In this document: positions 9,205 to 22,571 of the stretch, piece after piece
Position numbering within the stretch: the stretch's first letter is position 1
How the letters are laid out: every line of letters starts with the position of its first letter
From: an uncultured bacterium
GTDB taxonomy: Bacteria; Patescibacteriota; Microgenomatia; UBA1400; PJMF01
DNA: 51,838 nucleotides
Direction: 5' to 3'
Assembly: GCA_903959355.1 (NCBI GenBank)
Contig: CAJBWJ010000032.1
Location: forward strand, 1 to 51,838
The notes under the pieces: model-generated
What the model saw: only the letters and a program-made list of their open reading frames with translations
Told to the model about the DNA's origin: nothing
Databases searched by the model: none
Translations under genes and position numbers: made by a program

Positions 9205-11433
9205 TTACTTTGGAGGGGTGTAGTCGTTTATGCTATAAACACCGTGCTGATCTGGTTTCATTTCTTTTTTTTCTGGTTCGCCAAAAACAGTTTTTATTTT
9301 AAAGTCTTCTTTTGGCTTCTCTTCTTCATTATTTTGGCTTTGGGCAATGTTATTTTCTCTCTTTTCTAATTCATCATCAGGATTAAAAGCGAGGTGGTCA
9401 CTTTTTAAGGCGCTTTCTGCTGTCTTGTCGGCATTCTCCAGCAAATCCTCTTTAACGTCTATTTCTGGGCTTTGCCATTTTGGTTTATTTTGTTTAATTT
9501 CTTCATGTGAATTTTTAAAATCAGCACTATTAACCAATCGCTGTTTTCTAAGCTCTCTTGTTTTTTTATAGCTCTCATAGCTTTCACTTCTTGGTTCTAG
9601 TCCAGAGCTAATTGTCTTTTTTATTTCTTTGTCATCTTTTTGCTTAAGAATTTCTTCTGGGTTAGTGGTGATAACAGCATGTTCTGCTGGAGAGGCGATA
9701 ACTTTAAGCGCGACGTGGTTCTGACCGGCAAAAAAGATGCCCTCACCAACATCCGATGAGACGAGTAGTTGTCTTTCACCCTCAGATAAGTAAAAAGTTT
9801 GAGTTAAGATTGGTACAGAAGCAGTAGATTGTTTCATTAAAAACTGGATGGAAGCGTTAGAGACGATTGCTTTGCCATAGTCATTGTGTAAAAAGTCTTC
9901 CACATCCTGAGTAATAGTGGTGATGCCTAGATAATATTTACGAGCTCTTTTGACCATCGAATAAACAAAGGCTGCGCTATCTGGATGCATCATAAAGTAC
10001 CAAGCCTCATCAATAACAAGAATACGGCGTTTGAGGTTCTTTTTTACTCTAGTCCAGATGAAATCAAGAATCACATACATGGCAATTGGACGAAGTGATT
10101 CTTCCATTTCTTTAACTGAAAAAACTGTAAACTGAGACTGAATGTTGATGTTGGAAGCCTGATCAAAAATTCCACGGAAAGAACCGGTAATAAATTTTTC
10201 CAAACGGGCGGCAATATCATCACTTTCGTCTTGCTCCATACCGATCAGGGCTTTGTATAGATCTTCCATAAGTGGAGGAGTGTTTTTTTGAGTGGCCGGA
10301 TCTGGAGTAATTCCTTTGGCTTTGTAAGCAGCAATAATAGAGCGATCAAGAAGAGCTTCCTGTTGAGGAGTCATTTCGCCAAGCATAACCTTGAGAAGAC
10401 CGTGAATAGAGAGAATTTTTTGGCCTAATTCATTTTCACCTTCTTCGTAGACATTGGACAAGTCGAAAGGATTTATTTTGGCTTTTGAGCCAAATGTAAA
10501 GTTGATGTATTCGCCGCCAACCATTTTGCAGAGTTCCTCATACTCATGCTCAGGATCGAGAACGATAACTTCGGCATCAAACATTAATTGGCGAAGAACC
10601 TCAAGTTTAACGGTATAGGATTTACCGGCACCAGATTTGGCAAAAATAACCATGTTGGCGTTTTCCATTTTAAAGCGATCAAAAATGACCAAAGAATCAT
10701 TGTGCTCGTTGATGCCATAAACGATACCGGTTTCCATGGTTAATTCTGAAGAAGTGAATGGAAAAGTGGTGGCTAGGGAAGTGGTGTCCATGTTTCTGGT
10801 CACAGAAAGACGATCAACTCCCATTGGTAGGGTGGTCTTAAAACCCTCGTCCATCTGTAGGGCTGATTTTTTGGAAACAATCATTAAAGCACCTAGGGTA
10901 CTTTGAATACTTTTGGTAATTTTATCTAGAACTTCTTTGCTGTCGGCACGAACCGTAACGTAAAGACCAAACTGAAAAAATCTCTCTGAGCCAGCTGCCA
11001 ATTGTTCGCGCATGGAGCGAGCATCACTTAATTTAATTTCTGTATTAATGTTGCTGATTTTTCCGGATCTTATATCCGAAGTAATTTCAGCCTCCATTTC
11101 GGTAATTTTTCTCTTTAAATTATCCAAAATATCACCAGTATCAGATGGAAAGACAAACATGGAAATGTTGGCTTGTTGCGGATAGTTAATGAGCGGCGAG
11201 AGCCAGTTGGCTGGAACAGCTCTCGGATAACCAGCCACAAACAATGTTCTAGTATAAGTAGAATTAATTTTTTGGTAAGTAAAATCAACTTCAATGGCTT
11301 CTGGAGCAATAATATCTTGAATGGTGACTAATCCGCGAGAGAATTCACCCAGTTTTTCTTGCGTGTATTTTTCTGCATCTATCTGATTTTGCTCAGTCGA
11401 AGCGGTGGTTTTCTTTTTGCCAAAAAAATTCAT
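9205..11433 (-). CDS. virB4: VirB4/TrbE/CagE-family T4SS ATPase with Lys/Glu-rich C-terminal tail
   Basis: 742 aa. Walker A FAKSGAGKSYT (DNA ~10621-10641) and Walker B RRILVIDEAWYFM (~10001-10030). The organisation is N-domain plus AAA ATPase. The last ~150 aa are low-complexity and charged. Confidence 0.8.
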   Translation of the reverse strand: MNFFGKKKTTASTEQNQIDAEKYTQEKLGEFSRGLVTIQDIIAPEAIEVDFTYQKINSTYTRTLFVAGYPRAVPANWLSPLINYPQQANISMFVFPSDTGDILDNLKRKITEMEAEITSDIRSGKISNINTEIKLSDARSMREQLAAGSERFFQFGLYVTVRADSKEVLDKITKSIQSTLGALMIVSKKSALQMDEGFKTTLPMGVDRLSVTRNMDTTSLATTFPFTSSELTMETGIVYGINEHNDSLVIFDRFKMENANMVIFAKSGAGKSYTVKLEVLRQLMFDAEVIVLDPEHEYEELCKMVGGEYINFTFGSKAKINPFDLSNVYEEGENELGQKILSIHGLLKVMLGEMTPQQEALLDRSIIAAYKAKGITPDPATQKNTPPLMEDLYKALIGMEQDESDDIAARLEKFITGSFRGIFDQASNINIQSQFTVFSVKEMEESLRPIAMYVILDFIWTRVKKNLKRRILVIDEAWYFMMHPDSAAFVYSMVKRARKYYLGITTITQDVEDFLHNDYGKAIVSNASIQFLMKQSTASVPILTQTFYLSEGERQLLVSSDVGEGIFFAGQNHVALKVIASPAEHAVITTNPEEILKQKDDKEIKKTISSGLEPRSESYESYKKTRELRKQRLVNSADFKNSHEEIKQNKPKWQSPEIDVKEDLLENADKTAESALKSDHLAFNPDDELEKRENNIAQSQNNEEEKPKEDFKIKTVFGEPEKKEMKPDQHGVYSINDYTPPK

Positions 11434-11442
11434 ATTATTTTT

Positions 11443-12936
11443 TTATATAGTTTGATTTTGATCTGGTTTTAATTCTGGCTCAAATTTATTTTGTAGTGGA
11501 GTGATTTCTTCTGCGAAATCACTAGCTAGATTATTATCTGGTGTAATTGAATTCGTTGGGTCAGTAGCTGGTTCTAAGCTTGAACTCAAGTTCGAATCTA
11601 AAGCTGGCTCGACAGCTGGCTCAGTAATTGGATTAGCAATTGGTTCTGTAGTTGGCTCGACAGCTGATTGCTCTGACGAAGTCACTGGACTCTGTTCAAC
11701 AAAAGTTTGAGGAAGAGCGACTTCTGGCTCAGAAAGACTAGAATCAATAAGACTAGAATCAAGACTGATGTCTAAATTTTGGTTTATTTCTTGAGCAGGT
11801 TGGATTGCAGGTTGGTTTATTGGAGCCATTTGTTCTGGAACCATTTGTTCTGCCGAGACCTGATTCGGAACAGCAGAGATAACTGGAGCAGTGGGATCAA
11901 TTGCTTGAGTAAATGGTTCAACAACTGTTTCAATGACTGGTTCGACGATTGGATTGACAATCGGTTCAGAAACTAGAGTTGAATCTACAATTGGACTAAT
12001 AATTGGCTGCTGAACTTCTGGGGTTGCTGATTCCATTACTGGTTGAGCAGCTAAGTTTGAAGTGATTGGCAGATCAGTGTTAGTGGTTGTTGGTTCTGCT
12101 GCTGGAAGATTAGCCAGGCTGCTAGCTGGAGCGGTCGGGGCTGGATTGCCGCTTAAGATTTCTTCTGCAGAAGGACCTTGTGGCATTTGTGCGACTGATG
12201 CTGCCTGATCTTGAACTGGGTTGCCAGATTGATTGTTTAATTGCATAAATTTTCCTCCAAAACTCGCCCTAACTAGGGGAGTGGTATAGTTTTCACTACT
12301 ACTTATTTCTTGTCCCTCAACTGCTTCGGGATTGTAATTTATATAAAAATTTTGAATTATTTCTTGAGTGCTAAGTTGTCTCACATACAATCCAAGGCGA
12401 TTGAATTGAGAAGTTAGATGATCTCTTCTCGGCTCTAATATATTGGTGGCCTTTTCTATAAGAACACTCTTTTCAACAGAGCTGATATCAAAAGCATTTT
12501 TTCCAGGCAAAACGCTAGATGGACTAATCAAGCCCATTTCTCCAGGGGTTGCCGGAACAATAATGTAGAAACGTTTTTGCAGAACATTTCTTTCTTTTAT
12601 TAAAGCTGCAACAAAATCTCTATATTGCTTAATCAATGTTGCTTTTCGATCTGAACTTGCTTTTGTGATTTGTTCATCAAGAAGTCTCAGATATTTTGTT
12701 GCGTCTTTGGTTTGGGATTGTATGTTGATTTGAATTGGGTAGTTTAAAGAATTTAGCAAAGATCCATATGTGAAAATAACCGCATCCTGCTCTTGCTCCG
12801 CTAATAAGCTAAAATTCATCGTTCCGACTTGAAGAATTATGGCAGCAGTGCCATCTTTTAATAGAACCATGTCGTTGACAATGTCATAGACATCAAGAAA
12901 TTCTTGAGTAGTTGATCTAATCGCGTTATCGCTCAT
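11443..12936 (-). CDS. VirB4 N-domain-like protein with ~270-aa Pro/Ala/Thr/Glu-rich disordered tail
   Basis: 497 aa. The first ~230 aa (FLDVYDIVNDMVLLKDGTAAIILQVGTMNFSLLAEQEQDAVIFTYGSLLNSLNYPIQINIQSQ...) follow the same pattern as the N-domain of the adjacent VirB4 (VTIQDIIAPEAIEVDFTYQKINSTYTRTLFVAGYPRAVPANWLSPLINYPQQANISMFVFPS...). There is no Walker motif. The remainder is imperfect EP/PI-type low complexity. Confidence 0.45.
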   Translation of the reverse strand: MSDNAIRSTTQEFLDVYDIVNDMVLLKDGTAAIILQVGTMNFSLLAEQEQDAVIFTYGSLLNSLNYPIQINIQSQTKDATKYLRLLDEQITKASSDRKATLIKQYRDFVAALIKERNVLQKRFYIIVPATPGEMGLISPSSVLPGKNAFDISSVEKSVLIEKATNILEPRRDHLTSQFNRLGLYVRQLSTQEIIQNFYINYNPEAVEGQEISSSENYTTPLVRASFGGKFMQLNNQSGNPVQDQAASVAQMPQGPSAEEILSGNPAPTAPASSLANLPAAEPTTTNTDLPITSNLAAQPVMESATPEVQQPIISPIVDSTLVSEPIVNPIVEPVIETVVEPFTQAIDPTAPVISAVPNQVSAEQMVPEQMAPINQPAIQPAQEINQNLDISLDSSLIDSSLSEPEVALPQTFVEQSPVTSSEQSAVEPTTEPIANPITEPAVEPALDSNLSSSLEPATDPTNSITPDNNLASDFAEEITPLQNKFEPELKPDQNQTI

Positions 12937-12960: not shown

Positions 12961-13815
12961 TTAGGGCTTGATTACAAGGGGATTGAGAATTTCCCCCTTT
13001 AATTCTATTTCAAAGTTTGGATATTTTTGATCATCTTTTTCTGCCAATATTAAATATTTTCCATTTTCAAGAGATTTGTTGATTGCAAAATTACCATCTC
13101 TATCGCTTTTGATTATCCTTAGGCTTTCTTTGCTTTGATTTTGAATTTCAATAATTGCTTGCGGCACTGCTTGTCCCATTCCATCTATTATTAGTCCATA
13201 AATTTGATTTGGCAGATGATCGCTTGTGGAGACAAAGGCTTGAGGAGCTTTAAGCTTTCTAACTCTTATTTTTAAGTCTGGTTTTTCTTGTTTTCTAATT
13301 TCAACTTCAACTTCATCTTGATCAACTTTAACATTGTCGAATTCATTGAGAATGTTACTAATTTTTTGATTTTCTTCTAAATCAAAATCATCTAATTTTT
13401 CATCACTTGGAATGCTTTTTAGATATTCAAAAATTCTTTGTTTTTTAGCGGGGTTTAAATTAACACTTGGTGCAAAGAAGTCTTCTTGAGCGCTTGTAAT
13501 TTTATAATTAAAAAAATCAGGGATTTTACTGGCTTTTTTCCAAAAAAATTTCGTTGGCTTATAAATGTTTTTAAAAAAAGTTTTAATCCAGTGATCCATC
13601 GGTCTTTCTTCCAAAGGAACAAATGCAATTAAGGCTCCTAAGCCGACTGTTAAAAAAATAAGAGGCCATTTAATCATGCCAATTAAGTTAGTTTTAAAGA
13701 TAACAAAAGCAATAATTACAGCCAAGGCCATTTCTCCAAATTGCTTTAGAGTCATCTGACCGATGAGGTGAAATTTATAGTTGGTAATGTCTTGCGGAAT
13801 TGCGTGCTGTTTCAT
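12961..13815 (-). CDS. PrgI/VirB3-like membrane protein fused to a carboxypeptidase-regulatory-like beta-sandwich
   Basis: 284 aa. The N-terminus MKQHAIPQDITNYKFHLIGQMTLKQFGEMALAVIIAFVIF plus a second TM matches the PrgI-family start (P.DI..Y..K..G.TLRQ). The C-terminus IYGLIIDGMGQAVPQAIIEIQNQ...SDRDGNFAINKSLENGKYLILAEK fits the CarboxypepD_reg pattern. Confidence 0.6.
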   Translation of the reverse strand: MKQHAIPQDITNYKFHLIGQMTLKQFGEMALAVIIAFVIFKTNLIGMIKWPLIFLTVGLGALIAFVPLEERPMDHWIKTFFKNIYKPTKFFWKKASKIPDFFNYKITSAQEDFFAPSVNLNPAKKQRIFEYLKSIPSDEKLDDFDLEENQKISNILNEFDNVKVDQDEVEVEIRKQEKPDLKIRVRKLKAPQAFVSTSDHLPNQIYGLIIDGMGQAVPQAIIEIQNQSKESLRIIKSDRDGNFAINKSLENGKYLILAEKDDQKYPNFEIELKGEILNPLVIKP

Positions 13816-13852: not shown

Positions 13853-14860
13853 TTAGTCGTTAACAGCAGCAGCCACTGCTGGGGTAATTATTTCTGCTTC
13901 AATTTTAATTCCACTAGAATTAGTTATTTTTGCCCCAAATCTATAAAAAGGATAGGCAATTTTTAGCTTATCGTCATAGCGATACTCAATTTTTATTGAA
14001 TATAGATCAGCATTATTAATCCAATTAAGATCAATCGCAGAACTAGCTTTACTATCGGCTTTAATAATTGAGGCATTGCCTTTTTTAATATTATTAATTG
14101 ATTGGTCGATAGAAACAGAAGGAAGTTGTTTTAAAATTTGAAAATTTTGGAAAAAATCTCTAAAAACAATTCTTTCCAAAGCATAAGAATTATTTACGCG
14201 GCAAAAGAATGGGTAGTTGTTTTGATTTTCATAAAAAACTTTATAACCGTCTAATTCGTAAGTTAGAGGAATTTGTAAAAAAACAGCTTTTTTAGGATCA
14301 GTGCTGGTTTGTTCAAAACCGCTGTTTAAATAAATAAGATTGTCTCTTTGTGGAACCAGTGGCGATAAGATGTTATATTTGTTGTAGAAATTTAGGCAGG
14401 TAGACAGGGCTTCTTCAGTAACAATGGGTAAATTATCATCTCCTTTATTTTCAGTGACGCTGCTAAAAGTATAGTAGTTTTCGTAACTATTTTTAGTGAG
14501 AGAATTCTTGCTTGCGAGCCAATAATTTGGAATTTTGCTATCGGCTTCAAGCTGATATTCGTTGATTAATTTATTTGCTAGTCCATCAGCTATTCCGGTG
14601 TTGTTCTCTGTTTGATAGACATTAAATAGCTCTGGAATTTCTATTTTACTGCCGCTAAAAGATACTTTTTTGAAGGTGCTTTGAGTGTCGTCGTAATTAT
14701 TAACTACAAAATTATTAGCAATAATTGTCTCAGATGGTGGAGTAATTATGACAAAAACAGCGGCCAAAATTAAGGCGGCAACTATAACAGCAATGACTAT
14801 AAATAAGAAATTTATTTTTTTTAGGCCGTTTTTCTTTGGCTCAGATGTGTGATTTTGCAT
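13853..14860 (-). CDS. bitopic membrane protein, function unknown (positional candidate for VirB8/TcpC-like role)
   Basis: 335 aa. One N-terminal TM (INFLFIVIAVIVAALILAAVFVII) and a ~290-aa extracytoplasmic region. No motif recognised, so the call is by size, topology and position only. Confidence 0.3.
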   Translation of the reverse strand: MQNHTSEPKKNGLKKINFLFIVIAVIVAALILAAVFVIITPPSETIIANNFVVNNYDDTQSTFKKVSFSGSKIEIPELFNVYQTENNTGIADGLANKLINEYQLEADSKIPNYWLASKNSLTKNSYENYYTFSSVTENKGDDNLPIVTEEALSTCLNFYNKYNILSPLVPQRDNLIYLNSGFEQTSTDPKKAVFLQIPLTYELDGYKVFYENQNNYPFFCRVNNSYALERIVFRDFFQNFQILKQLPSVSIDQSINNIKKGNASIIKADSKASSAIDLNWINNADLYSIKIEYRYDDKLKIAYPFYRFGAKITNSSGIKIEAEIITPAVAAAVND

Positions 14861-14876
14861 ATTTTTATTCCTATTT

Positions 14877-17800
14877 TTAATCGTAGCAACTAGTTACATG
14901 ATCACCAACTTTAGCAGGAGAATTACCATTGTCTGTCTCTGGCATTAGCTGTTCAATGGCTGAGCTTGCTGGTTTTGATCCCCACCAACCGCCCCCCGCA
15001 TCAATTACTGTTCCAAAATGTGAGTGCACATCTCCGATTCCTCTGTTGCTCATTAGTCCAATCATAAAGCCAGCTTCAACCTGCATGCAGGTGTTTGGAG
15101 TACTAAGGGCTGGGTTTGGTTCCTGAAAGTGAGCAAAGTCTTCATAGTAGGTTTGACCTTCGTATTGAAATTCCAGTATGTATCTACATCCATATTGATT
15201 GTCATCGCATCTCTTGAAACAAAGGTTTCCATCAAAATTAGCGTAAACTGGTGGGCCATAGATAGCTGCTCCGGAACAACCATCACAACCAATGTCATAA
15301 CTATCACCAAAACCACCAGCATTTGGAGGGCTGTGGCTGTAATCTCCGAATGGTAATTGCCAGATTGTTCCTGTTGACGGCCAACATCCGGCACCAGCGC
15401 TACAATTTCCAAGACAAACTCTCGCCGCAGTTGTAACGTTATCTGTTCCAGACATAAAAGAGTTTTGATAATAAAAATTAGCCTCAATGGTATTGAGAAT
15501 AGCAGTGTGATTGTAGTTAGAATCCAACTCATCTAGAGTGTAAGTAAATGTTAGGCTTTCGCCGGCTGGAATTACAATAACGCCATCTGTTGGAACTGTT
15601 TCTGATGGAGTCGGTGTTATTTCTCCAGAGCCAATAGTTGGCGTAGGGGTAGTACTAAGCGGAGTGTTTGTTAAACCTCCCTGTTCTTTGATCAAATCTT
15701 TAAAATAATCAAAATCCAAAAGCTTCTCACTCGGAATACTTGGCATGGCCTGACCAGCTTCTTCCCAGCCTTTTTTACTCTGTTTAAACTTAATTGTGTC
15801 TTTTATATCGGTGATTTGTAGTGAAAAATCTTCTTTTGGTTTAATAGTGACAGTGTATTCTATGGAAAGAGGGAAGGATGGATTTTCACATTTAGCCCCA
15901 TCGTTCTCTGGGCTGGCACAACCAGTTTTAATAACTGCGGTTTTGTTAATTTCTGCGTATTTAGATGTCTTTTCACCGCCAGCTCCTCCATTTATTTCTG
16001 ATTCATTTTTTGGAAAATCTGTTAAAAAAGCTGAGTTTAAACTTGTTTGATAAATAAAAATAAAAATAGTGCTTGCTCCAACGGTGGCAATGACAGCCTG
16101 TCCAGCTGTGGCCATTGCCGAAGAAGAGAATTGATTCATTAGGGTCTTGGCTCCTTGAGGAAATTGAGCTCCAGCTCCTTGTCCTTGTGCAGCTGCTCTC
16201 TGTGCCAAGTTAGTTCCGCTTTGACTGCCAAAACCTCCAATTCCTTCACCAATCTTACCAAGAGCTTTTTCTGCTCCAGAGAAGAAATCCTTTATCCCCG
16301 CAAATCCATTGCGCAGCATAATGGCTGCAGGAGCCAGAAGCAATAATAAGGGCAGCATTGAGCTGAGTGCGGCTAGAACAGCGAGCGCAACCAGCCACGG
16401 CCAATTTTTTTTGATAAACTCCAGAACTTTTTCTAAACCCATTTCAATGAGCTGGTTTTTAATTTGTTTAAGAATAGGAATGGAGGCTTCTGCTGCCAAA
16501 AGACCCTCTCCAAATCCAGGAATTAAATAAAGAGCGTCTCCTATGGCTTCAGCAGCTAGTCTTTTACCTGTCTGTCCGATAGCGCTGTCCATGAGGCCGG
16601 TACCGTGATACTCGGTTTCTGGGTCAAAAGCTTGTTGAACATAGCCACTTTCGTCTCTAGCAAAAGCCCCGGGACCAAAAGCTTCTCCAGCCTGGATCAT
16701 ATACAGATCCATTGGGTTTATTTGAGGAAGAATGGTAGTTTCAAAAATTTGAATATTATATGTTGTGTAGGCAACACCAGGCATATAAAACTCAAAGTAA
16801 ACCTTCATGGTTTTTTGCTGTTCAGCTGGTTTAAGTTCTGCTAGCTTGGCTGATAAATATTTAGAAATTAAGTCTTTTTGTTGGGCTTTAAAATCTTCTG
16901 CTGCTTTGTTGTCGACTAATCCATCTAATTCGTCCAATTCGTTTAGTTCTCCTGCATTTTCAGCGAGTTCTTCAGCAGTTGATCTTCCGCCAGTGTAATT
17001 AAGAGTGGTTCCTAAATTGCGTAAAACAGCAGCTCTTTTTGGATCTTTTTTGATTTTTTCATAAAGCTTTTGCGCTTCTTCTGGAGTTAGCTTCTCTTGA
17101 CTGAATTCTTCTCTAATTTCTTTGGCCCAAATAGCTCTTTTGCGTTTCCAATAAAAAATAATTAAATTAGCAAGTTCTTCTTTATGTTCATTAAATTGTT
17201 TTTGATCTATGTCGTTACCAAAAATATTTTTAAAGCGGTTGTAGTCAAAATTCTTTGGATCAGGAATAAGATATTCTGGAGGCAAACCTTGTTGAATCAA
17301 AAGCTCAATAATTGAGCGGGTATTATTTACAATACGCTCGTTTGTTACGCTGTCGTATCCAATAATTCCACTCAATTTCTCTAGAAGAGTTTTGTCCAAT
17401 TGCTGTTCGTTATTGATGATGTCCAATTCTCTTTCAATAACTCTGGCGAAATCAGGATTGGCGGCAGTTTTATCTATCTGTTTTTGAGCAGCTTCTGTGC
17501 TCAATATATTTTCTTTATCGTTTTTTATTCTTTGGCTGATTTTATCTTTAGTGAGTTTTTTCTTTTCATTTTCTTTAGTTCTTTTTTCAGCGCCTTTGCC
17601 TCTCATGGCAATATCGCGCACAGCGGAATTAATCAAGTTTAGCCCATGAACATCCATTAATAAGCCAAGAGCAGCTTGATTACTAAAGTTAATTCTTTGA
17701 GATGAGTCGCTAATGAGTTTGTCTAAAGAAAATTCGCCACCAAGCAATAACGTTTCAACTTGCAGAAAAGAGCGATCCATTAATTGACGACGAATTTCGA

Positions 17801-18728
17801 GCGGCAATTGATCAAAAGTGACCTGCATTCCCGGAGGAAGTCCAAGTTTAGCCAATGACTCTGCATTAAAATATCTATTAAGAGCCTGATTGATCGCTAT
17901 AATTGAAAGAGATTGAATGTAGAGCTTGGATTCTGAGTCTAGCTCGGAGATTTTGACAGGTGTTCTTGATTGGTCTGGAGGTTGATCTGGTCTTCTTTGG
18001 CTTTCATCGCTTTTTTTCTGGCCATCCTGATCATTTCCTCCAAGATCAGAAGAATTGCCTGAAGCGCCTCCTCCACCTCCAAGTAAAATGCTTCCACCTC
18101 CACCGCCACCACTACCATCTGAGGCAGTAGTTCCTAATTGCTCGTCGTCATCTCTTGATTTATTTGTATCGAGAGGGCCAATACTTGGGGCCAAAATTTC
18201 ATGAATCAATTCTATTAACTTAATGATTCTGTCAGTTAGCTGTTCATTTTCAATGCGCTCCAGCTCTTCAATCGTGATTTTATTATTGGATGGGTGAACT
18301 CCAATCCATTCAAAAACACTTTTGATGTCATCTAATTTATTTCCTTGTTCCTGAGTGACAACAAAATTTCTATTACTCTTTAATGACGTGCGAATTTGTT
18401 CAACAAAATTAAGAAGATCTGAAAGAAAAATAAATGGTTGATCATCTGGATTTCCGATTCGACCCTCCAAAAGATCTTCAGCTCTACTTAGATCAAAGCG
18501 ATTGTCGCTAAAATGCCTTCCGGAGTCTGGTTTTTCAACGATGATGTTGCAAGTAACTTTTCTTGTGCCGGCTGAAACACTATAAAAATTTTTAATCCAG
18601 TAAGCACTATCACTTAAAACCTCATTGATTGCTTGTGGCTGCAAGTTTTCAACGCCAGAAATCTTCTTAAGACCAATACGGTCAGAGCGTTTAAAAATTT
18701 TGTTTTCTGAACTAGAAGAACTTGCCAT
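14877..18728 (-). CDS. 1283-aa membrane protein: cytoplasmic N-region with poly-Gly, TM helices, extracytoplasmic Cys-rich degenerate M23 (LytM)-like domain
   Basis: No signal peptide. GSGGGGGGSILLGGGGGASG is encoded near 18060-18120. TM helices are WPWLVALAVLAALSSMLPLLLLLAPAAIML (~16310-16405) and AVIATVGASTIFIFIY. The C-terminal 15012-15362 region reads SHSPPNAGGFGDSYDIG...GPPVYANFDGN...YYEDFAHF...VEAGFMIGLMSNRGIGDVHSHFG. This parallels the M23 order H..D / G.PV.A / Y.HL / G..IG..G.TG...HLHF seen in the bona fide M23 at 44054-45229. Confidence 0.5.
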   Translation of the reverse strand: MASSSSSENKIFKRSDRIGLKKISGVENLQPQAINEVLSDSAYWIKNFYSVSAGTRKVTCNIIVEKPDSGRHFSDNRFDLSRAEDLLEGRIGNPDDQPFIFLSDLLNFVEQIRTSLKSNRNFVVTQEQGNKLDDIKSVFEWIGVHPSNNKITIEELERIENEQLTDRIIKLIELIHEILAPSIGPLDTNKSRDDDEQLGTTASDGSGGGGGGSILLGGGGGASGNSSDLGGNDQDGQKKSDESQRRPDQPPDQSRTPVKISELDSESKLYIQSLSIIAINQALNRYFNAESLAKLGLPPGMQVTFDQLPLEIRRQLMDRSFLQVETLLLGGEFSLDKLISDSSQRINFSNQAALGLLMDVHGLNLINSAVRDIAMRGKGAEKRTKENEKKKLTKDKISQRIKNDKENILSTEAAQKQIDKTAANPDFARVIERELDIINNEQQLDKTLLEKLSGIIGYDSVTNERIVNNTRSIIELLIQQGLPPEYLIPDPKNFDYNRFKNIFGNDIDQKQFNEHKEELANLIIFYWKRKRAIWAKEIREEFSQEKLTPEEAQKLYEKIKKDPKRAAVLRNLGTTLNYTGGRSTAEELAENAGELNELDELDGLVDNKAAEDFKAQQKDLISKYLSAKLAELKPAEQQKTMKVYFEFYMPGVAYTTYNIQIFETTILPQINPMDLYMIQAGEAFGPGAFARDESGYVQQAFDPETEYHGTGLMDSAIGQTGKRLAAEAIGDALYLIPGFGEGLLAAEASIPILKQIKNQLIEMGLEKVLEFIKKNWPWLVALAVLAALSSMLPLLLLLAPAAIMLRNGFAGIKDFFSGAEKALGKIGEGIGGFGSQSGTNLAQRAAAQGQGAGAQFPQGAKTLMNQFSSSAMATAGQAVIATVGASTIFIFIYQTSLNSAFLTDFPKNESEINGGAGGEKTSKYAEINKTAVIKTGCASPENDGAKCENPSFPLSIEYTVTIKPKEDFSLQITDIKDTIKFKQSKKGWEEAGQAMPSIPSEKLLDFDYFKDLIKEQGGLTNTPLSTTPTPTIGSGEITPTPSETVPTDGVIVIPAGESLTFTYTLDELDSNYNHTAILNTIEANFYYQNSFMSGTDNVTTAARVCLGNCSAGAGCWPSTGTIWQLPFGDYSHSPPNAGGFGDSYDIGCDGCSGAAIYGPPVYANFDGNLCFKRCDDNQYGCRYILEFQYEGQTYYEDFAHFQEPNPALSTPNTCMQVEAGFMIGLMSNRGIGDVHSHFGTVIDAGGGWWGSKPASSAIEQLMPETDNGNSPAKVGDHVTSCYD

Positions 18729-18923: not shown

Positions 18924-21900
18924 ATGAACCCAGAAGCGCAAACAGAATACCAGCGAAAACTTGAAGAAGCATCTGAAAAAGTTATTGCTAACTTGAAGCG
19001 TAAAAGAGATCACTTGGGTTTAAGCTACGAAGAGTTGAAGGATGAGATAAAAGCATCAATTAAAGAGAAAATACTTCCAATAGCTGATGAATATGATAGC
19101 TTACTAGCTGGTGAGATTAACATAGACACTCCTCTCGCAGCAATTTCAAAGAAAATTAAATCGGCTTTTGAACCTGTAAAAGAACCAATAAAAAAAGATG
19201 AAGATGAGGAAGATGTAGACTCTGAATCAGATGATCTGGAGTCTTTGAAGACTTATCAAAAAATACTAGACAAGATAGCTTTTTATACACAGGCAATTGC
19301 GGAAATAGGAAAAATTAAAAATGAAATAGTAGCTGATCCTGGCTTTTCTAAATCAAATGTTGTCGCAGGATTGGCTCCATTCCTAGATTTATTTTTTGAG
19401 GCAGGTTTAAAAGTTGACTTTGTAGTAACTGTAGAACGTGAGGGTTTTGATGATCCGGTAGAATTGCATAAGAATGACACCATTCTCTTAAAAGATATAG
19501 CAATGGCAATCAAACTCAATAAGGATGCAAGAGGTGCAAGAGCGAGAAGAGACATTGAATCTTTTACAGAATCTGTTTTTGGAAGACTACAAATACCTAA
19601 AGATGAAGTTCCAACCACACCAAAAAGAATTATTTCGATGCTGGCGAAGGAATTTTTTAATTTAGTCCCAGACTTTAAAAATTTAAAAGTAGCTTTAATT
19701 GACCAAACAATCGAGCTTGCCAAAAAGAAAAAAGATACATACGAAGATTCCACTCAAAGAATCAATAAGAATTACGAAAAAATATTTAATCCAAAATTAG
19801 GAGATCTAAAAACTGTTTTAGATGATTTCGGCGACGATCTAACCCATAGGGGATATGAAAAAGGAAAAATAAGTAAGAAAAAGCAGGATGGGTTGACAGA
19901 TGAGCTAAATGATAAAACTAAAGTTGTCCTAATGGAGCTTGGAAGCATGAGACGTCCGGTTTCAGAAAAAAAGAATAGTTTAAATGAGCTGCTGTCCTTA
20001 ATTCAATCTTATGAGGAAGATTTTGCTGCAAACGAAGACGATGAGGCTTCTGGAAAAATAGACAAAAAAGAATTAAAAAGACTGCAGAATAGCCTGCAAG
20101 ATAAATTGATACTAAAAGCCAGTAAAATCGCAAAAAGCATTGACCTGAAAAAGGAGCAATTAGAAGATTCTAAAGAATTAGAACAAGCAAAATCAACAAT
20201 TAAAGATGAAATTTATAAGGCAGACTCGGTTTTAATAATGTACGATTTCTTCCAAGACGAGCTTGTGAGACAAAGAACCCTGTTTATTGAGGAGTGGGGA
20301 TTGGATGAATTTACAAAAGACATTGAAAATAGAGAAGTTGATAGTTTGAGTCCTTGGGAAATAGTTAAATATGTGATCAAAAAAGAGGTGGCATTTTGGA
20401 CGCCGCTTCATCAAGAATCAGACAATGAATTTTTAAGAGCTTTGGTTGATAAGATTAAATACAATTTCATGGAAGATGGTAAGGGTTACGAATCTAATGG
20501 ATCTAGAATGGGTACTGACGATGACGCGTGGTCAAACTCAGAGGGCAGAACGATAATGGGGTTACTGCAAACCTATGCTTTGTATGCAAGCAGTATACAT
20601 GGTGAGCATTTTGCTGAAGGAAAAAAAGACGAACTTTTCAATAATCTTAGAGCTTTTAAGATCACTAGAGAAGGATTATATGGGGAAACTCTTGGTCATC
20701 CAGTTTATGGACCTTATTTAACCAAGATTATGGAAATTTCTCAATATTTGCCAACTTTGCGTCAAGGATCTCTACCTCCAATAGCAATACTTTCTGATCT
20801 GAATCTCTTAAAAAGTAAAATGATTCCAGATCAATATGAAATATTCAAAGATAGACTGGGCAGAGCAGTTAATCCATCCAGGCTAGTTGTGCTGCATGAA
20901 AGAAATGTTATTAGAGAAGGTAAGAGTATCAAGCTTGCTGCAGATAGATTTGTAAAAGACGATGATGGCAATTGGGCTTTTTATCCTGGCGAAGAAACTT
21001 TGCCAACAGATCAATTGATCCTGACATCAAATCCTGACTTTAGTTACCAAACCCTCTCTGGAAATATTGGTAGAACAGTAGCTTCAAGACTTCATGAATT
21101 TGCAGCAGAATTAATAGATAATAATCCGGAGCAATTTGGCTTAACTAAAGATGATATTCCAAAAAATGAAGACAATGTTTTTGCTGTGCAAACATTTGCT
21201 CAGTTTTTGTTTTATTCTTTTCCATTTTTAACTAAAATTTATGCAGATTATGAATTACAAACGCAAACAGCTTCTCATACTGTAAAGAGTGAAACATTAA
21301 ATTGGAACAAGCTGTTCTCTCCACTCGGTGAGGCTATTCAAGATTCTGATCGATATGGACTCAGATCAGCTTTAATGTGGATTTTTGTTTATTATGCTCC
21401 GTTCAAAGAGGGATTATTCGGAGCCTCTGGTAATTCGACAAGAATTAATCGTATTCAAAAGCTCATGATAGCTCATCAAAAATTTGTTTTTGGTGAAGAC
21501 GCAATGTCGCATATTGCCGGACAGCTAGACGCTCATAATTATTTTGGTTTGCCACTAGGTTTCACAACTGCACTCGACATGATAAAAATCTCCGAAGGAG
21601 AAATTTCTAGACTTTTTGGAGACATAATTCATGAAGATGGAAGAGTAAATCCAGGATCATTTGAAAATCCACATAAAATTGGTCCAAAAGGAGATATTGA
21701 TGCTGATGATGATGGTAAAAAAGTTGAAGGTCTTCCTGCTTATGACTGGGATTTATTTTTGCTTTCAGCCAAAGCTTATTTAAAATTATTAGAGACAACC
21801 ATTAAAGATATAGAAGTTGGCAGCTTAACTCTACATGATTTGGAACAAGGAGAATTGAATCCAATCACTCAGCTTCTATTTAAAGTAATGGGGCAATTTA

Positions 21901-22571
21901 AAATGTGGTTTTTTGGCAATGAAGATAGCCCAGCTAACGTATTGAAAAAATCCAGTCCTCTTGTATTTCATGCATTTCTAAGACATGCTCACGCCACCAA
22001 AAGAGAGAGACCTGCTGATGTGGTCAAGATTTTTTCAGCCATAATGAAGGCAGTGGAGTCTTCTCTCGGAATTATCGGTAGCGGTCCTAAAGTTAATAGA
22101 GGTTTAGGTTCCGGATCAGTGAGCAAGGCTGTTGCTGTTGTTCATGAGTGGATGGAAGGTCATCATGACGAGCGTGTGTATAGCGATGGAAAACCAAATT
22201 GGGGAGAAGCAATCTCGAGAGGCCTAGGAGGCCAACCTATGCTTGATCCAAAAATTTGCGATGGTTTTACTCCATTATCTGGAAGTTGTTTTGATGCCAG
22301 GCAACCTCTACTGATTGATTACTTGAAGCTTCTTTGGGAAGATTTTTCTGAAGAATACACCACAAAAGAAAATCCAGATGGACTTGGCAAGTGGCCATTC
22401 GTAATAACAGCTGATTTAGGGATTAAATATGTTGCCTGGGCTCCATCCGAGGCCCCTATTAAGCTTAGTGGTAGAACTAATGAATGGACAGAAATTGTAG
22501 ATTGGTTTAGAGCTCGAATTCTGCGTAAAGAGCCAGTCTCATCCCCTCTTAAAAGACCTAAGTTTGATTGA
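18924..22571 (+). CDS. 1215-aa hypothetical cytoplasmic protein (no TM, no signal peptide, no recognisable domain)
   Basis: Long uninterrupted ORF with codon and amino-acid usage like its neighbours. The N-terminal ~450 aa are acidic and coiled-coil-like. It is transcribed divergently from the T4SS-like operon and ends with TGA. Confidence 0.7.
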   Translation: MNPEAQTEYQRKLEEASEKVIANLKRKRDHLGLSYEELKDEIKASIKEKILPIADEYDSLLAGEINIDTPLAAISKKIKSAFEPVKEPIKKDEDEEDVDSESDDLESLKTYQKILDKIAFYTQAIAEIGKIKNEIVADPGFSKSNVVAGLAPFLDLFFEAGLKVDFVVTVEREGFDDPVELHKNDTILLKDIAMAIKLNKDARGARARRDIESFTESVFGRLQIPKDEVPTTPKRIISMLAKEFFNLVPDFKNLKVALIDQTIELAKKKKDTYEDSTQRINKNYEKIFNPKLGDLKTVLDDFGDDLTHRGYEKGKISKKKQDGLTDELNDKTKVVLMELGSMRRPVSEKKNSLNELLSLIQSYEEDFAANEDDEASGKIDKKELKRLQNSLQDKLILKASKIAKSIDLKKEQLEDSKELEQAKSTIKDEIYKADSVLIMYDFFQDELVRQRTLFIEEWGLDEFTKDIENREVDSLSPWEIVKYVIKKEVAFWTPLHQESDNEFLRALVDKIKYNFMEDGKGYESNGSRMGTDDDAWSNSEGRTIMGLLQTYALYASSIHGEHFAEGKKDELFNNLRAFKITREGLYGETLGHPVYGPYLTKIMEISQYLPTLRQGSLPPIAILSDLNLLKSKMIPDQYEIFKDRLGRAVNPSRLVVLHERNVIREGKSIKLAADRFVKDDDGNWAFYPGEETLPTDQLILTSNPDFSYQTLSGNIGRTVASRLHEFAAELIDNNPEQFGLTKDDIPKNEDNVFAVQTFAQFLFYSFPFLTKIYADYELQTQTASHTVKSETLNWNKLFSPLGEAIQDSDRYGLRSALMWIFVYYAPFKEGLFGASGNSTRINRIQKLMIAHQKFVFGEDAMSHIAGQLDAHNYFGLPLGFTTALDMIKISEGEISRLFGDIIHEDGRVNPGSFENPHKIGPKGDIDADDDGKKVEGLPAYDWDLFLLSAKAYLKLLETTIKDIEVGSLTLHDLEQGELNPITQLLFKVMGQFKMWFFGNEDSPANVLKKSSPLVFHAFLRHAHATKRERPADVVKIFSAIMKAVESSLGIIGSGPKVNRGLGSGSVSKAVAVVHEWMEGHHDERVYSDGKPNWGEAISRGLGGQPMLDPKICDGFTPLSGSCFDARQPLLIDYLKLLWEDFSEEYTTKENPDGLGKWPFVITADLGIKYVAWAPSEAPIKLSGRTNEWTEIVDWFRARILRKEPVSSPLKRPKFD

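Follow-up and report, generated by a model that had tools for sequence, protein, structure and literature searches.

Among described type IV secretion systems (T4SS), the closest relatives of the gene treated here are trsD of pGO1 and pSK41 and traD of pIP501 (NCBIfam TrsD/TraD, NF041427; the MPF-FATA TrsD profile of Guglielmini et al. 2014). Their products are soluble proteins of ~200 aa with no ATPase motifs, and the gene is located between a small VirB3/PrgI-like (TrsC-like) gene and virB4. In Patescibacteria, TrsD was found to be the commonest T4SS component beside virB4, with 2,272 homologs, 1,664 of which adjoin virB4; it is remotely homologous to the N termini of VirB4 proteins, a TrsD homolog is listed as essential in Ca. 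S. epibionticum ML1, and the T4SS clusters are often near dnaA (Quiñonero-Coronel et al. 2025, PMC12102498). The same paper gives TrsD no function. Here we describe a TrsD-type gene from a 51,838-nucleotide stretch of DNA (contig CAJBWJ010000032.1; hereafter the window) of an uncultured member of the Patescibacteriota, the genome assembly of which comprises 864 kb in 86 contigs. The protein that it encodes, P0001, is very probably the detached first N-terminal module of a split VirB4 in an MPF-FATA-like chromosomal T4SS of a bacterium of the candidate phyla radiation.

The gene and its partner are laid out as follows.

11443..12936, minus strand: P0001, whole open reading frame (ORF), 497 aa, TrsD-type, with a predicted VirB4 N-module and a disordered tail.
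12259..12936, minus strand: conserved TrsD/'TraC-like' domain of P0001, residues 1-226, the counterpart of TrwK residues 5-240, which make up the first half of the N-terminal domain in VirB4.
11446..12258, minus strand: acidic, Pro/Ser/Ala/Thr-rich low-complexity tail of P0001, residues 227-497, variable among relatives (conservation, 0.23).
9205..11433, minus strand: VirB4 ATPase P0002, 742 aa, without the first N-module; core residues ~1-600, then a K/E-rich tail.

A preliminary description of this DNA had taken the ORF at 11443-12936 for a genuine gene directly upstream of virB4 whose product carries no Walker motifs. This was borne out: the 497-aa frame is on the minus strand, 9 nt separate it from virB4 (9205-11433), and Walker A is absent on reading the sequence. 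No transmembrane (TM) helix was found in P0001, the highest 19-residue mean Kyte-Doolittle hydropathy (KD19) being 1.26. The gene thus stands where TrsD/TraD genes stand, on the same strand as virB4, straight upstream of it and downstream of a PrgI/VirB3-like gene, from which 24 nt separate it. The TrsD/TraD family consists of soluble proteins of ~200 aa; P0001 has no TM helix or Walker A, but it reaches 497 aa owing to its tail, and its conserved domain is itself longer (~226 aa).

A search with residues 1-235 against 1.84 billion cluster representatives returned 1,615 matches at E ≤ 1e-3. Almost all of the 150 best-scoring proteins matched at their N terminus, with the match stopping near residue 226; total protein lengths were ~130 to 787 aa. 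Column conservation in an alignment of 103 close homologs was 0.84 for residues 1-226 versus 0.23 for residues 227-497, and the close homologs carry the source labels Pacebacteria or Patescibacteria. Residues ~10-130 of P0001 match NF041427 at profile positions 16-142 of 201 (28.3 to 29.1 bits; E, ~1e-6), positions 102-235 of the 894-position mycoplasma VirB4 model (VirB4_plasma), and positions 24-119 of the 752-position CD1110 VirB4 model. Among 41 diverse family members, all 41 matched VirB4_plasma at positions ~102-235, 40 matched TrsD, and 25 matched CD1110 at ~24-119; NF041427 was matched at E ≤ 0.01 in 40/41 relatives, with a best E value of 8e-12. The homology of the N-terminal part to the VirB4 N-domain, proposed in the preliminary description together with its lack of an ATPase and its tie to VirB4, is therefore upheld by profile matches to VirB4 N termini. 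That description had named a lack of significant profile or structure similarity between residues 1-230 and VirB4 N-domains as grounds for giving up the homology; the matches in 41/41 and 25/41 family members show the opposite.

Precomputed Pfam annotation assigns PF26593 'TraC-like' to P0001 and to nearly all of its close homologs. A local Pfam scan of P0001 gave only a chance-level match to DUF7214, and neither Pfam nor NCBIfam placed a P-loop NTPase domain (TraG P-loop or AAA_10) in P0001; such domains are in P0002. A weak PHROGs terminase match (E, 1e-3) was taken as noise.

The case for a split VirB4 comes from the partner gene and from a natural fusion. P0002 belongs to the CD1110 family of VirB4 in NCBIfam (1e-116), but it covers only positions 172-734 of the 752 positions of that model and matches the mycoplasma VirB4 model only from position 276. 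What P0002 lacks is thus precisely the part of the models matched by P0001. In contrast, P0204, a 787-aa protein from Patescibacteria, is a single-chain CD1110-type VirB4 that spans profile positions 3-735. Residues 1-209 of P0204 align to P0001 residues 1-212 with 44% identity (E, 1e-53), and residues 213-774 align to P0002 residues 42-602 with 61% identity. P0204 contains one copy of each module, in series and without overlap, and is collinear with both window genes, so that the two genes together amount to one VirB4. It was found on contigs of two independent sources, in the context PrgI-VirB4-M23 peptidase-...-dnaN-dnaA that is typical of Patescibacteria. The preliminary description had read P0001 as a duplicated paralog of a domain that VirB4 keeps; since P0002 begins at CD1110 position 172 without this module, and P0204 is collinear end to end with both genes, P0001 is better understood as the detached module itself than as a duplicate.

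In a quick tree of VirB4 proteins, for which those of the split second systems (see below) served as the outgroup, P0204 fell inside the chromosomal clade of split forms, its basal placement being unsettled. The simplest reading, with which the quick tree is consistent, is that P0204 may be a secondary re-fusion. On the groundwater contig with the fused gene (L043:5183-11042), the gene order is PrgI (273 aa), the fused 787-aa VirB4, an 890-aa Peptidase_M23 protein, a 332-aa protein, dnaN, and dnaA. PrgI thus keeps its long form even where there is no TrsD tail.

Predicted structure matches the module to a known VirB4. The N-terminal domain of TrwK, the VirB4 of R388, comprises residues 15-400, is wrapped by VirB3, and makes the VirB4 dimer interface (PMC9259494). 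Neither phmmer nor profile searches of PDB sequences returned anything for the N-terminal domain of P0001, so that likeness to TrwK was found by fold comparison only. An AlphaFold2 (AF2) model of the P0001 domain, built from a 41-sequence alignment, had a predicted local distance difference test (pLDDT) score of 78.5, with the core mostly above 85. The 12 best PDB matches from Foldseek (E, 8e-3; probability, 1.0) were without exception chains of R388 TrwK/VirB4, and the fold match was to TrwK residues 5-240, not to the part retained by P0002. P0001 thus corresponds to the first half of the TrwK N-terminal domain. Full-length VirB4 proteins (CD1110; R388 TrwK, PDB 7O42/8RTD), in which P0001 residues 1-226 find their counterpart at CD1110 positions ~24-119 and beyond and at TrwK residues 5-240, are one chain, whereas the window encodes two polypeptides, of which P0001 has no P-loop domain.

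We propose that residues 1-226 would constitute the first of two alpha/beta modules of the full-length VirB4 N-terminal domain, supplied by a separate upstream gene, and that VirB4 would begin with the second module, here and in nearly all relatives. The TrsD-type and VirB4 polypeptides would then assemble into a complete VirB4 protomer. By analogy with R388, the TrsD module may couple the ATPase ring to the PrgI/VirB3-like protein and the membrane.

The arrangement is conserved. Of 41 related genomes, 39 yielded the P0001 domain and all 41 yielded VirB4. Wherever both were on one contig, the TrsD-like gene was straight upstream of VirB4 on the same strand, except in G037, where they are 5.5 kb apart; in G009 and G030, the pair is interrupted by contig ends. 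All 30 orthologous VirB4 ORFs that were extracted are short, with a start within ~50 aa of the onset of P0002 homology. The downstream piece thus lacks the module and the split is conserved, and hence the split is not a frameshift or a pseudogene. One VirB4 ortholog (G029:C7:42813-46568) lies within a single 1,331-aa open frame, in which the parts matching query residues 2-280 and 270-599 are separated by ~650 aa beside Walker A (GAGKS, 268-272); the insert is a candidate intein or large insertion.

Seven further, more divergent TrsD-VirB4 pairs were found in 6 of the 41 genomes, with TrsD-like proteins 24 to 30% identical and VirB4 proteins 40 to 42% identical to their chromosomal counterparts. 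The four that were examined are compact and tail-less, with, in this order, PrgI of 157 to 161 aa, TrsD of 204 to 206 aa, and VirB4 of 597 to 599 aa (L045-L048, on G007:C5, G037:C10, G033:C11, and G016:C1). The VirB4 proteins of these second triplets are near-identical between distant genomes (tree branch lengths, 0.04 to 0.06), which suggests that the compact triplet is a mobile element. Two Bacillota plasmids, from Peribacillus and Pontibacillus, encode a small unnamed protein, TrsD (219 or 274 aa), and VirB4 (~620 to 660 aa), the TrsD and VirB4 genes being in the same order; the Peribacillus plasmid annotation reads 'trsD: TrsD/TraD family conjugative transfer protein'.

The preliminary description knew of no T4SS component with this architecture. 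That view does not stand, as NF041427, PF26593 'TraC-like', and PMC12102498 all describe the family. The TrsD homologs reported from Patescibacteria belong to the same family as P0001 and occupy the same site beside virB4, near dnaA/dnaN; the gene, its homology, and its position had therefore already been described. In the text of PMC12102498 that was searched, there is no mention of a split VirB4, a TrsD-VirB4 fusion, disordered tails, or tail motifs, and no paper in the literature searched joins Patescibacteria, VirB4, and intrinsic disorder. The possible novelty is modest: explicit evidence for the split, drawn from the naturally fused protein and the correspondence with TrwK residues 5-240, and the conserved short motifs that end the disordered tails of both TrsD and VirB4 in this lineage. 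In all but the motifs, P0001 is an ordinary representative of a family that was known before, in a setting that was known as well.

The plasmid TrsD proteins (219 to 274 aa) have no acidic tail, whereas P0001 adds a 271-aa tail with a conserved motif. The tail had been noted as a Pro-rich low-complexity stretch of ~270 aa, and its 271 residues are indeed 14% Pro; it contains 37 D/E residues versus 3 K/R residues and 5 aromatic residues. An origin by tandem repetition was rejected, as TRF shows only two 15-bp, 2-copy repeats, and so was a secreted or membrane location, as there is no signal peptide or TM helix. Tail length ranges from 1 to 491 aa among stand-alone homologs with a complete domain, with a median of 191 aa over all 251 scored proteins; in P0204, the 580 residues that follow the domain do not count as a tail, since they constitute its VirB4 part. 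Grouped by relatedness, most ORFs measure 389 to 498 aa within the genus, 232 to 537 aa within the family, and 183 to 323 aa in other families of the order. The tail features of P0001 and of its partner are as follows.

11488..11520, minus strand: short linear motif DFAEEITPLQN, residues 473-483 of P0001, the sole tail island at conservation ≥ 0.55.
11734..11796, minus strand: weaker second island AQEINQNLDISLDSSLIDSSL, residues 381-401 of P0001, with conservation of 0.44 at residues 391-400; resembles the I[ND]xxLxxL of distant tails.
DFAEEITPLQNKF: tail peptide of P0001.
9208-9633, minus strand: VirB4 tail, residues 601-742 of P0002, K/E-rich and variable, ending in HGVYSINDYTPPK (9208-9246).

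Conservation of the DFAEEITPLQN island was 0.6 against a tail background of ~0.2. In 36 orthologous segments, which were picked for carrying the motif, F and E never vary, and conservation of I, P, L, and Q is at least 90% each, while the flanks are unalignable. Motifs of this type were found in 89 of 225 tails versus at most 2 in shuffled sequences. The I[ND]..L..L-type motif was found in 39 tails versus 3.6 in shuffles; the strict I[ND]..L..L 'motif B' pattern has no match in P0001 itself. The tails of more distant relatives end instead in PP[IVL][AP]E[IL], as in ...LPPIAEIT and ...MPPVAEI, a pattern present in 53 tails versus at most 2 to 3 in shuffles.

The tail of VirB4 is built on the same plan as that of TrsD. 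A [SDT][IL]x.Y..P motif, which may also be written as YSIDDYxPPK-type or YSI[DN]xY..PP-type, occurs within the last 25 residues of 91 of 120 VirB4 orthologs, versus at most 1 in shuffles. The VirB4 proteins also have an N-terminal leader with a conserved basic 'PFxKKK'.

Residues 227-497 would form a lineage-specific, strongly acidic disordered arm that drifts freely in sequence and length, and this arm may act as a flexible tether presenting DFAEEITPLQN to a putative partner. Arms on both halves of VirB4 (DFAEEITPLQN or PP[IVL][AP]E[IL]-COOH on one and YSIDDYxPPK-COOH on the other) might constitute a previously unrecognized fly-casting recruitment system, although we consider this unlikely as it stands; an essential nonconjugative T4SS would in this way be supplied with substrates, with the unlinked coupling protein, or with some other partner. 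A comparable arrangement is found in TraD of the F plasmid, a T4SS ATPase subunit and VirD4-type coupling protein with a disordered acidic C-terminal extension, the terminal residues of which dock TraM (see the citations in PMC12857230). The analogy is functional only: F-plasmid TraD is an unrelated type IV coupling protein and has no sequence relationship to VirB4 or TrsD.

Several points weigh against our interpretation of P0001 as a TrsD-type module with a working arm. The NF041427 score of 28 to 29 bits is far under the curated cutoff of 200, so that P0001 is a distant TrsD homolog and not a member by the NCBI rule. The motif patterns were composed after the data had been viewed, and the sequences are related, for which reasons the shuffle test overstates significance. 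A crude composition filter found low-complexity stretches in ~9 of the 34 window ORFs, a filter that undercounts the P0001 tail owing to its I/V/L content. Finally, TrsD proteins that have no tail operate with VirB4 in related systems; the core role therefore does not need the tail, which could be neutral for the most part.

The last two points belong to an alternative according to which the N-module is correctly identified but the tail is functionless, a neutral low-complexity expansion in which the motif reflects slow decay or alignment bias. A tail length of ~0 to 490 aa, tail-less forms in the same order, in the second systems, and in Bacillota, and a tail conservation of 0.23 are all in keeping with it, as are the low-complexity stretches in other window ORFs. 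Neutral drift is harder to reconcile with the invariant F and E and the nearly fixed I, P, L, and Q of the motif-carrying segments amid unalignable flanks, or with the recurrence of the motif in so many more natural than shuffled tails. It would also have to account for a different, equally fixed C-terminal PP[IVL][AP]E[IL] in more distant relatives and for a frame that stays open across hundreds of fast-evolving codons in all relatives. A functionless tail is thus possible, but we regard it as doubtful.

A further alternative is that the tail motif docks back on the VirB4/TrsD core, in cis or on a neighboring protomer, and stabilizes the split motor or gates its ATPase. The motif and VirB4 co-occur everywhere, and VirB4 has both the basic leader and a motif-tipped tail of its own. 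Split systems without tails exist, and the split itself therefore does not require docking, which we consider quite unlikely. A complex prediction of P0002 residues 1-600 and P0001 residues 1-235 with the tail segment 455-497 gave a score of 0.00 without controls and carries no weight either way.

The preliminary description had also pointed to an ordered pattern common to residues ~10-130 of P0001 and VirB4. The register of this pattern was recovered, but its score was not significant. When P0001 residues 1-235 and P0002 residues 1-260 were compared by BLASTP, no alignment followed the proposed register. An hhalign comparison of the two family profiles aligned P0001 residues 64-135 with P0002 residues 82-169 (LNYPIQINIQ with INYPQQANIS, and YIIVPATPGE with YVTVRADSKE) at 28% identity, with a probability of 0.25% and an E value of 0.24, which is not above chance. 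The AF2 models of P0001 and of the P0002 N terminus have the same order of elements (b-b-b-a-b-a-a-b-a-b) and match a common set of ferredoxin-like templates, in each case over the same stretch of the template: 7qh2_F (219/220-332), 1yz7 (174/175-266), 6wi5 (1-87), and 5jk5. Since both models share element order and templates, the VirB4 N-terminal domain may consist of two tandem modules of one common fold, which is perhaps what the pattern reflects; the P0002 N-terminal model, with a pLDDT of 53, is weak, and the ferredoxin-like fold is widespread. That P0001 is an extra, duplicated VirB4 N-domain paralog, forming mixed rings with complete VirB4 or acting as a regulator, could draw on the recovered register, on the similar models, and on a possible ancient tandem duplication of the two modules, but with a chance-level profile alignment and an empty BLASTP, a P0002 that lacks the module, single nonoverlapping copies in P0204, and a fold match to TrwK residues 5-240 instead of the portion kept by P0002, this alternative is already largely refuted and highly improbable.

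The detached VirB4 module and its partner are part of a tight row of genes on the minus strand, which encodes a 1,283-aa protein, a 335-aa bitopic protein, the PrgI/VirB3-like protein, P0001, VirB4, dnaA, and dnaN. The members upstream of P0001 are as follows.

12961..13815, minus strand: PrgI/VirB3-like membrane protein with a C-terminal CarboxypepD_reg-like domain (Pfam PrgI, 1.2e-6).
13853-14860, minus strand: 335-aa bitopic protein in the T4SS gene row.
14877-18728, minus strand: 1,283-aa protein in the T4SS gene row.

The PrgI/VirB3-like protein (12961-13815) is the membrane protein with which the VirB4 N-terminal domain would be expected to pair. Its C terminus carries a CarboxypepD_reg-like beta-sandwich (Pfam, 3.2e-5). 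If the topology of VirB3 is kept, this domain could be cytoplasmic and a candidate receptor for the tail motifs. Two giant, divergent ORFs, at 14877-18728 on the minus strand (1,283 aa) and at 18924-22571 on the plus strand (1,215 aa), flank the T4SS row; neither had a Pfam hit at E ≤ 1e-3.

Few machines have been shown to be indispensable to Patescibacteria living as epibionts, and the T4SS is one of them. Reading TrsD as the first VirB4 module, for which the natural fused form and the match to TrwK residues 5-240 speak, would give it a concrete structural role, in which it completes the domain gripped by VirB3/PrgI. The conserved motifs at the tail ends of TrsD and VirB4 may in turn serve as cheap handles for finding interaction partners.

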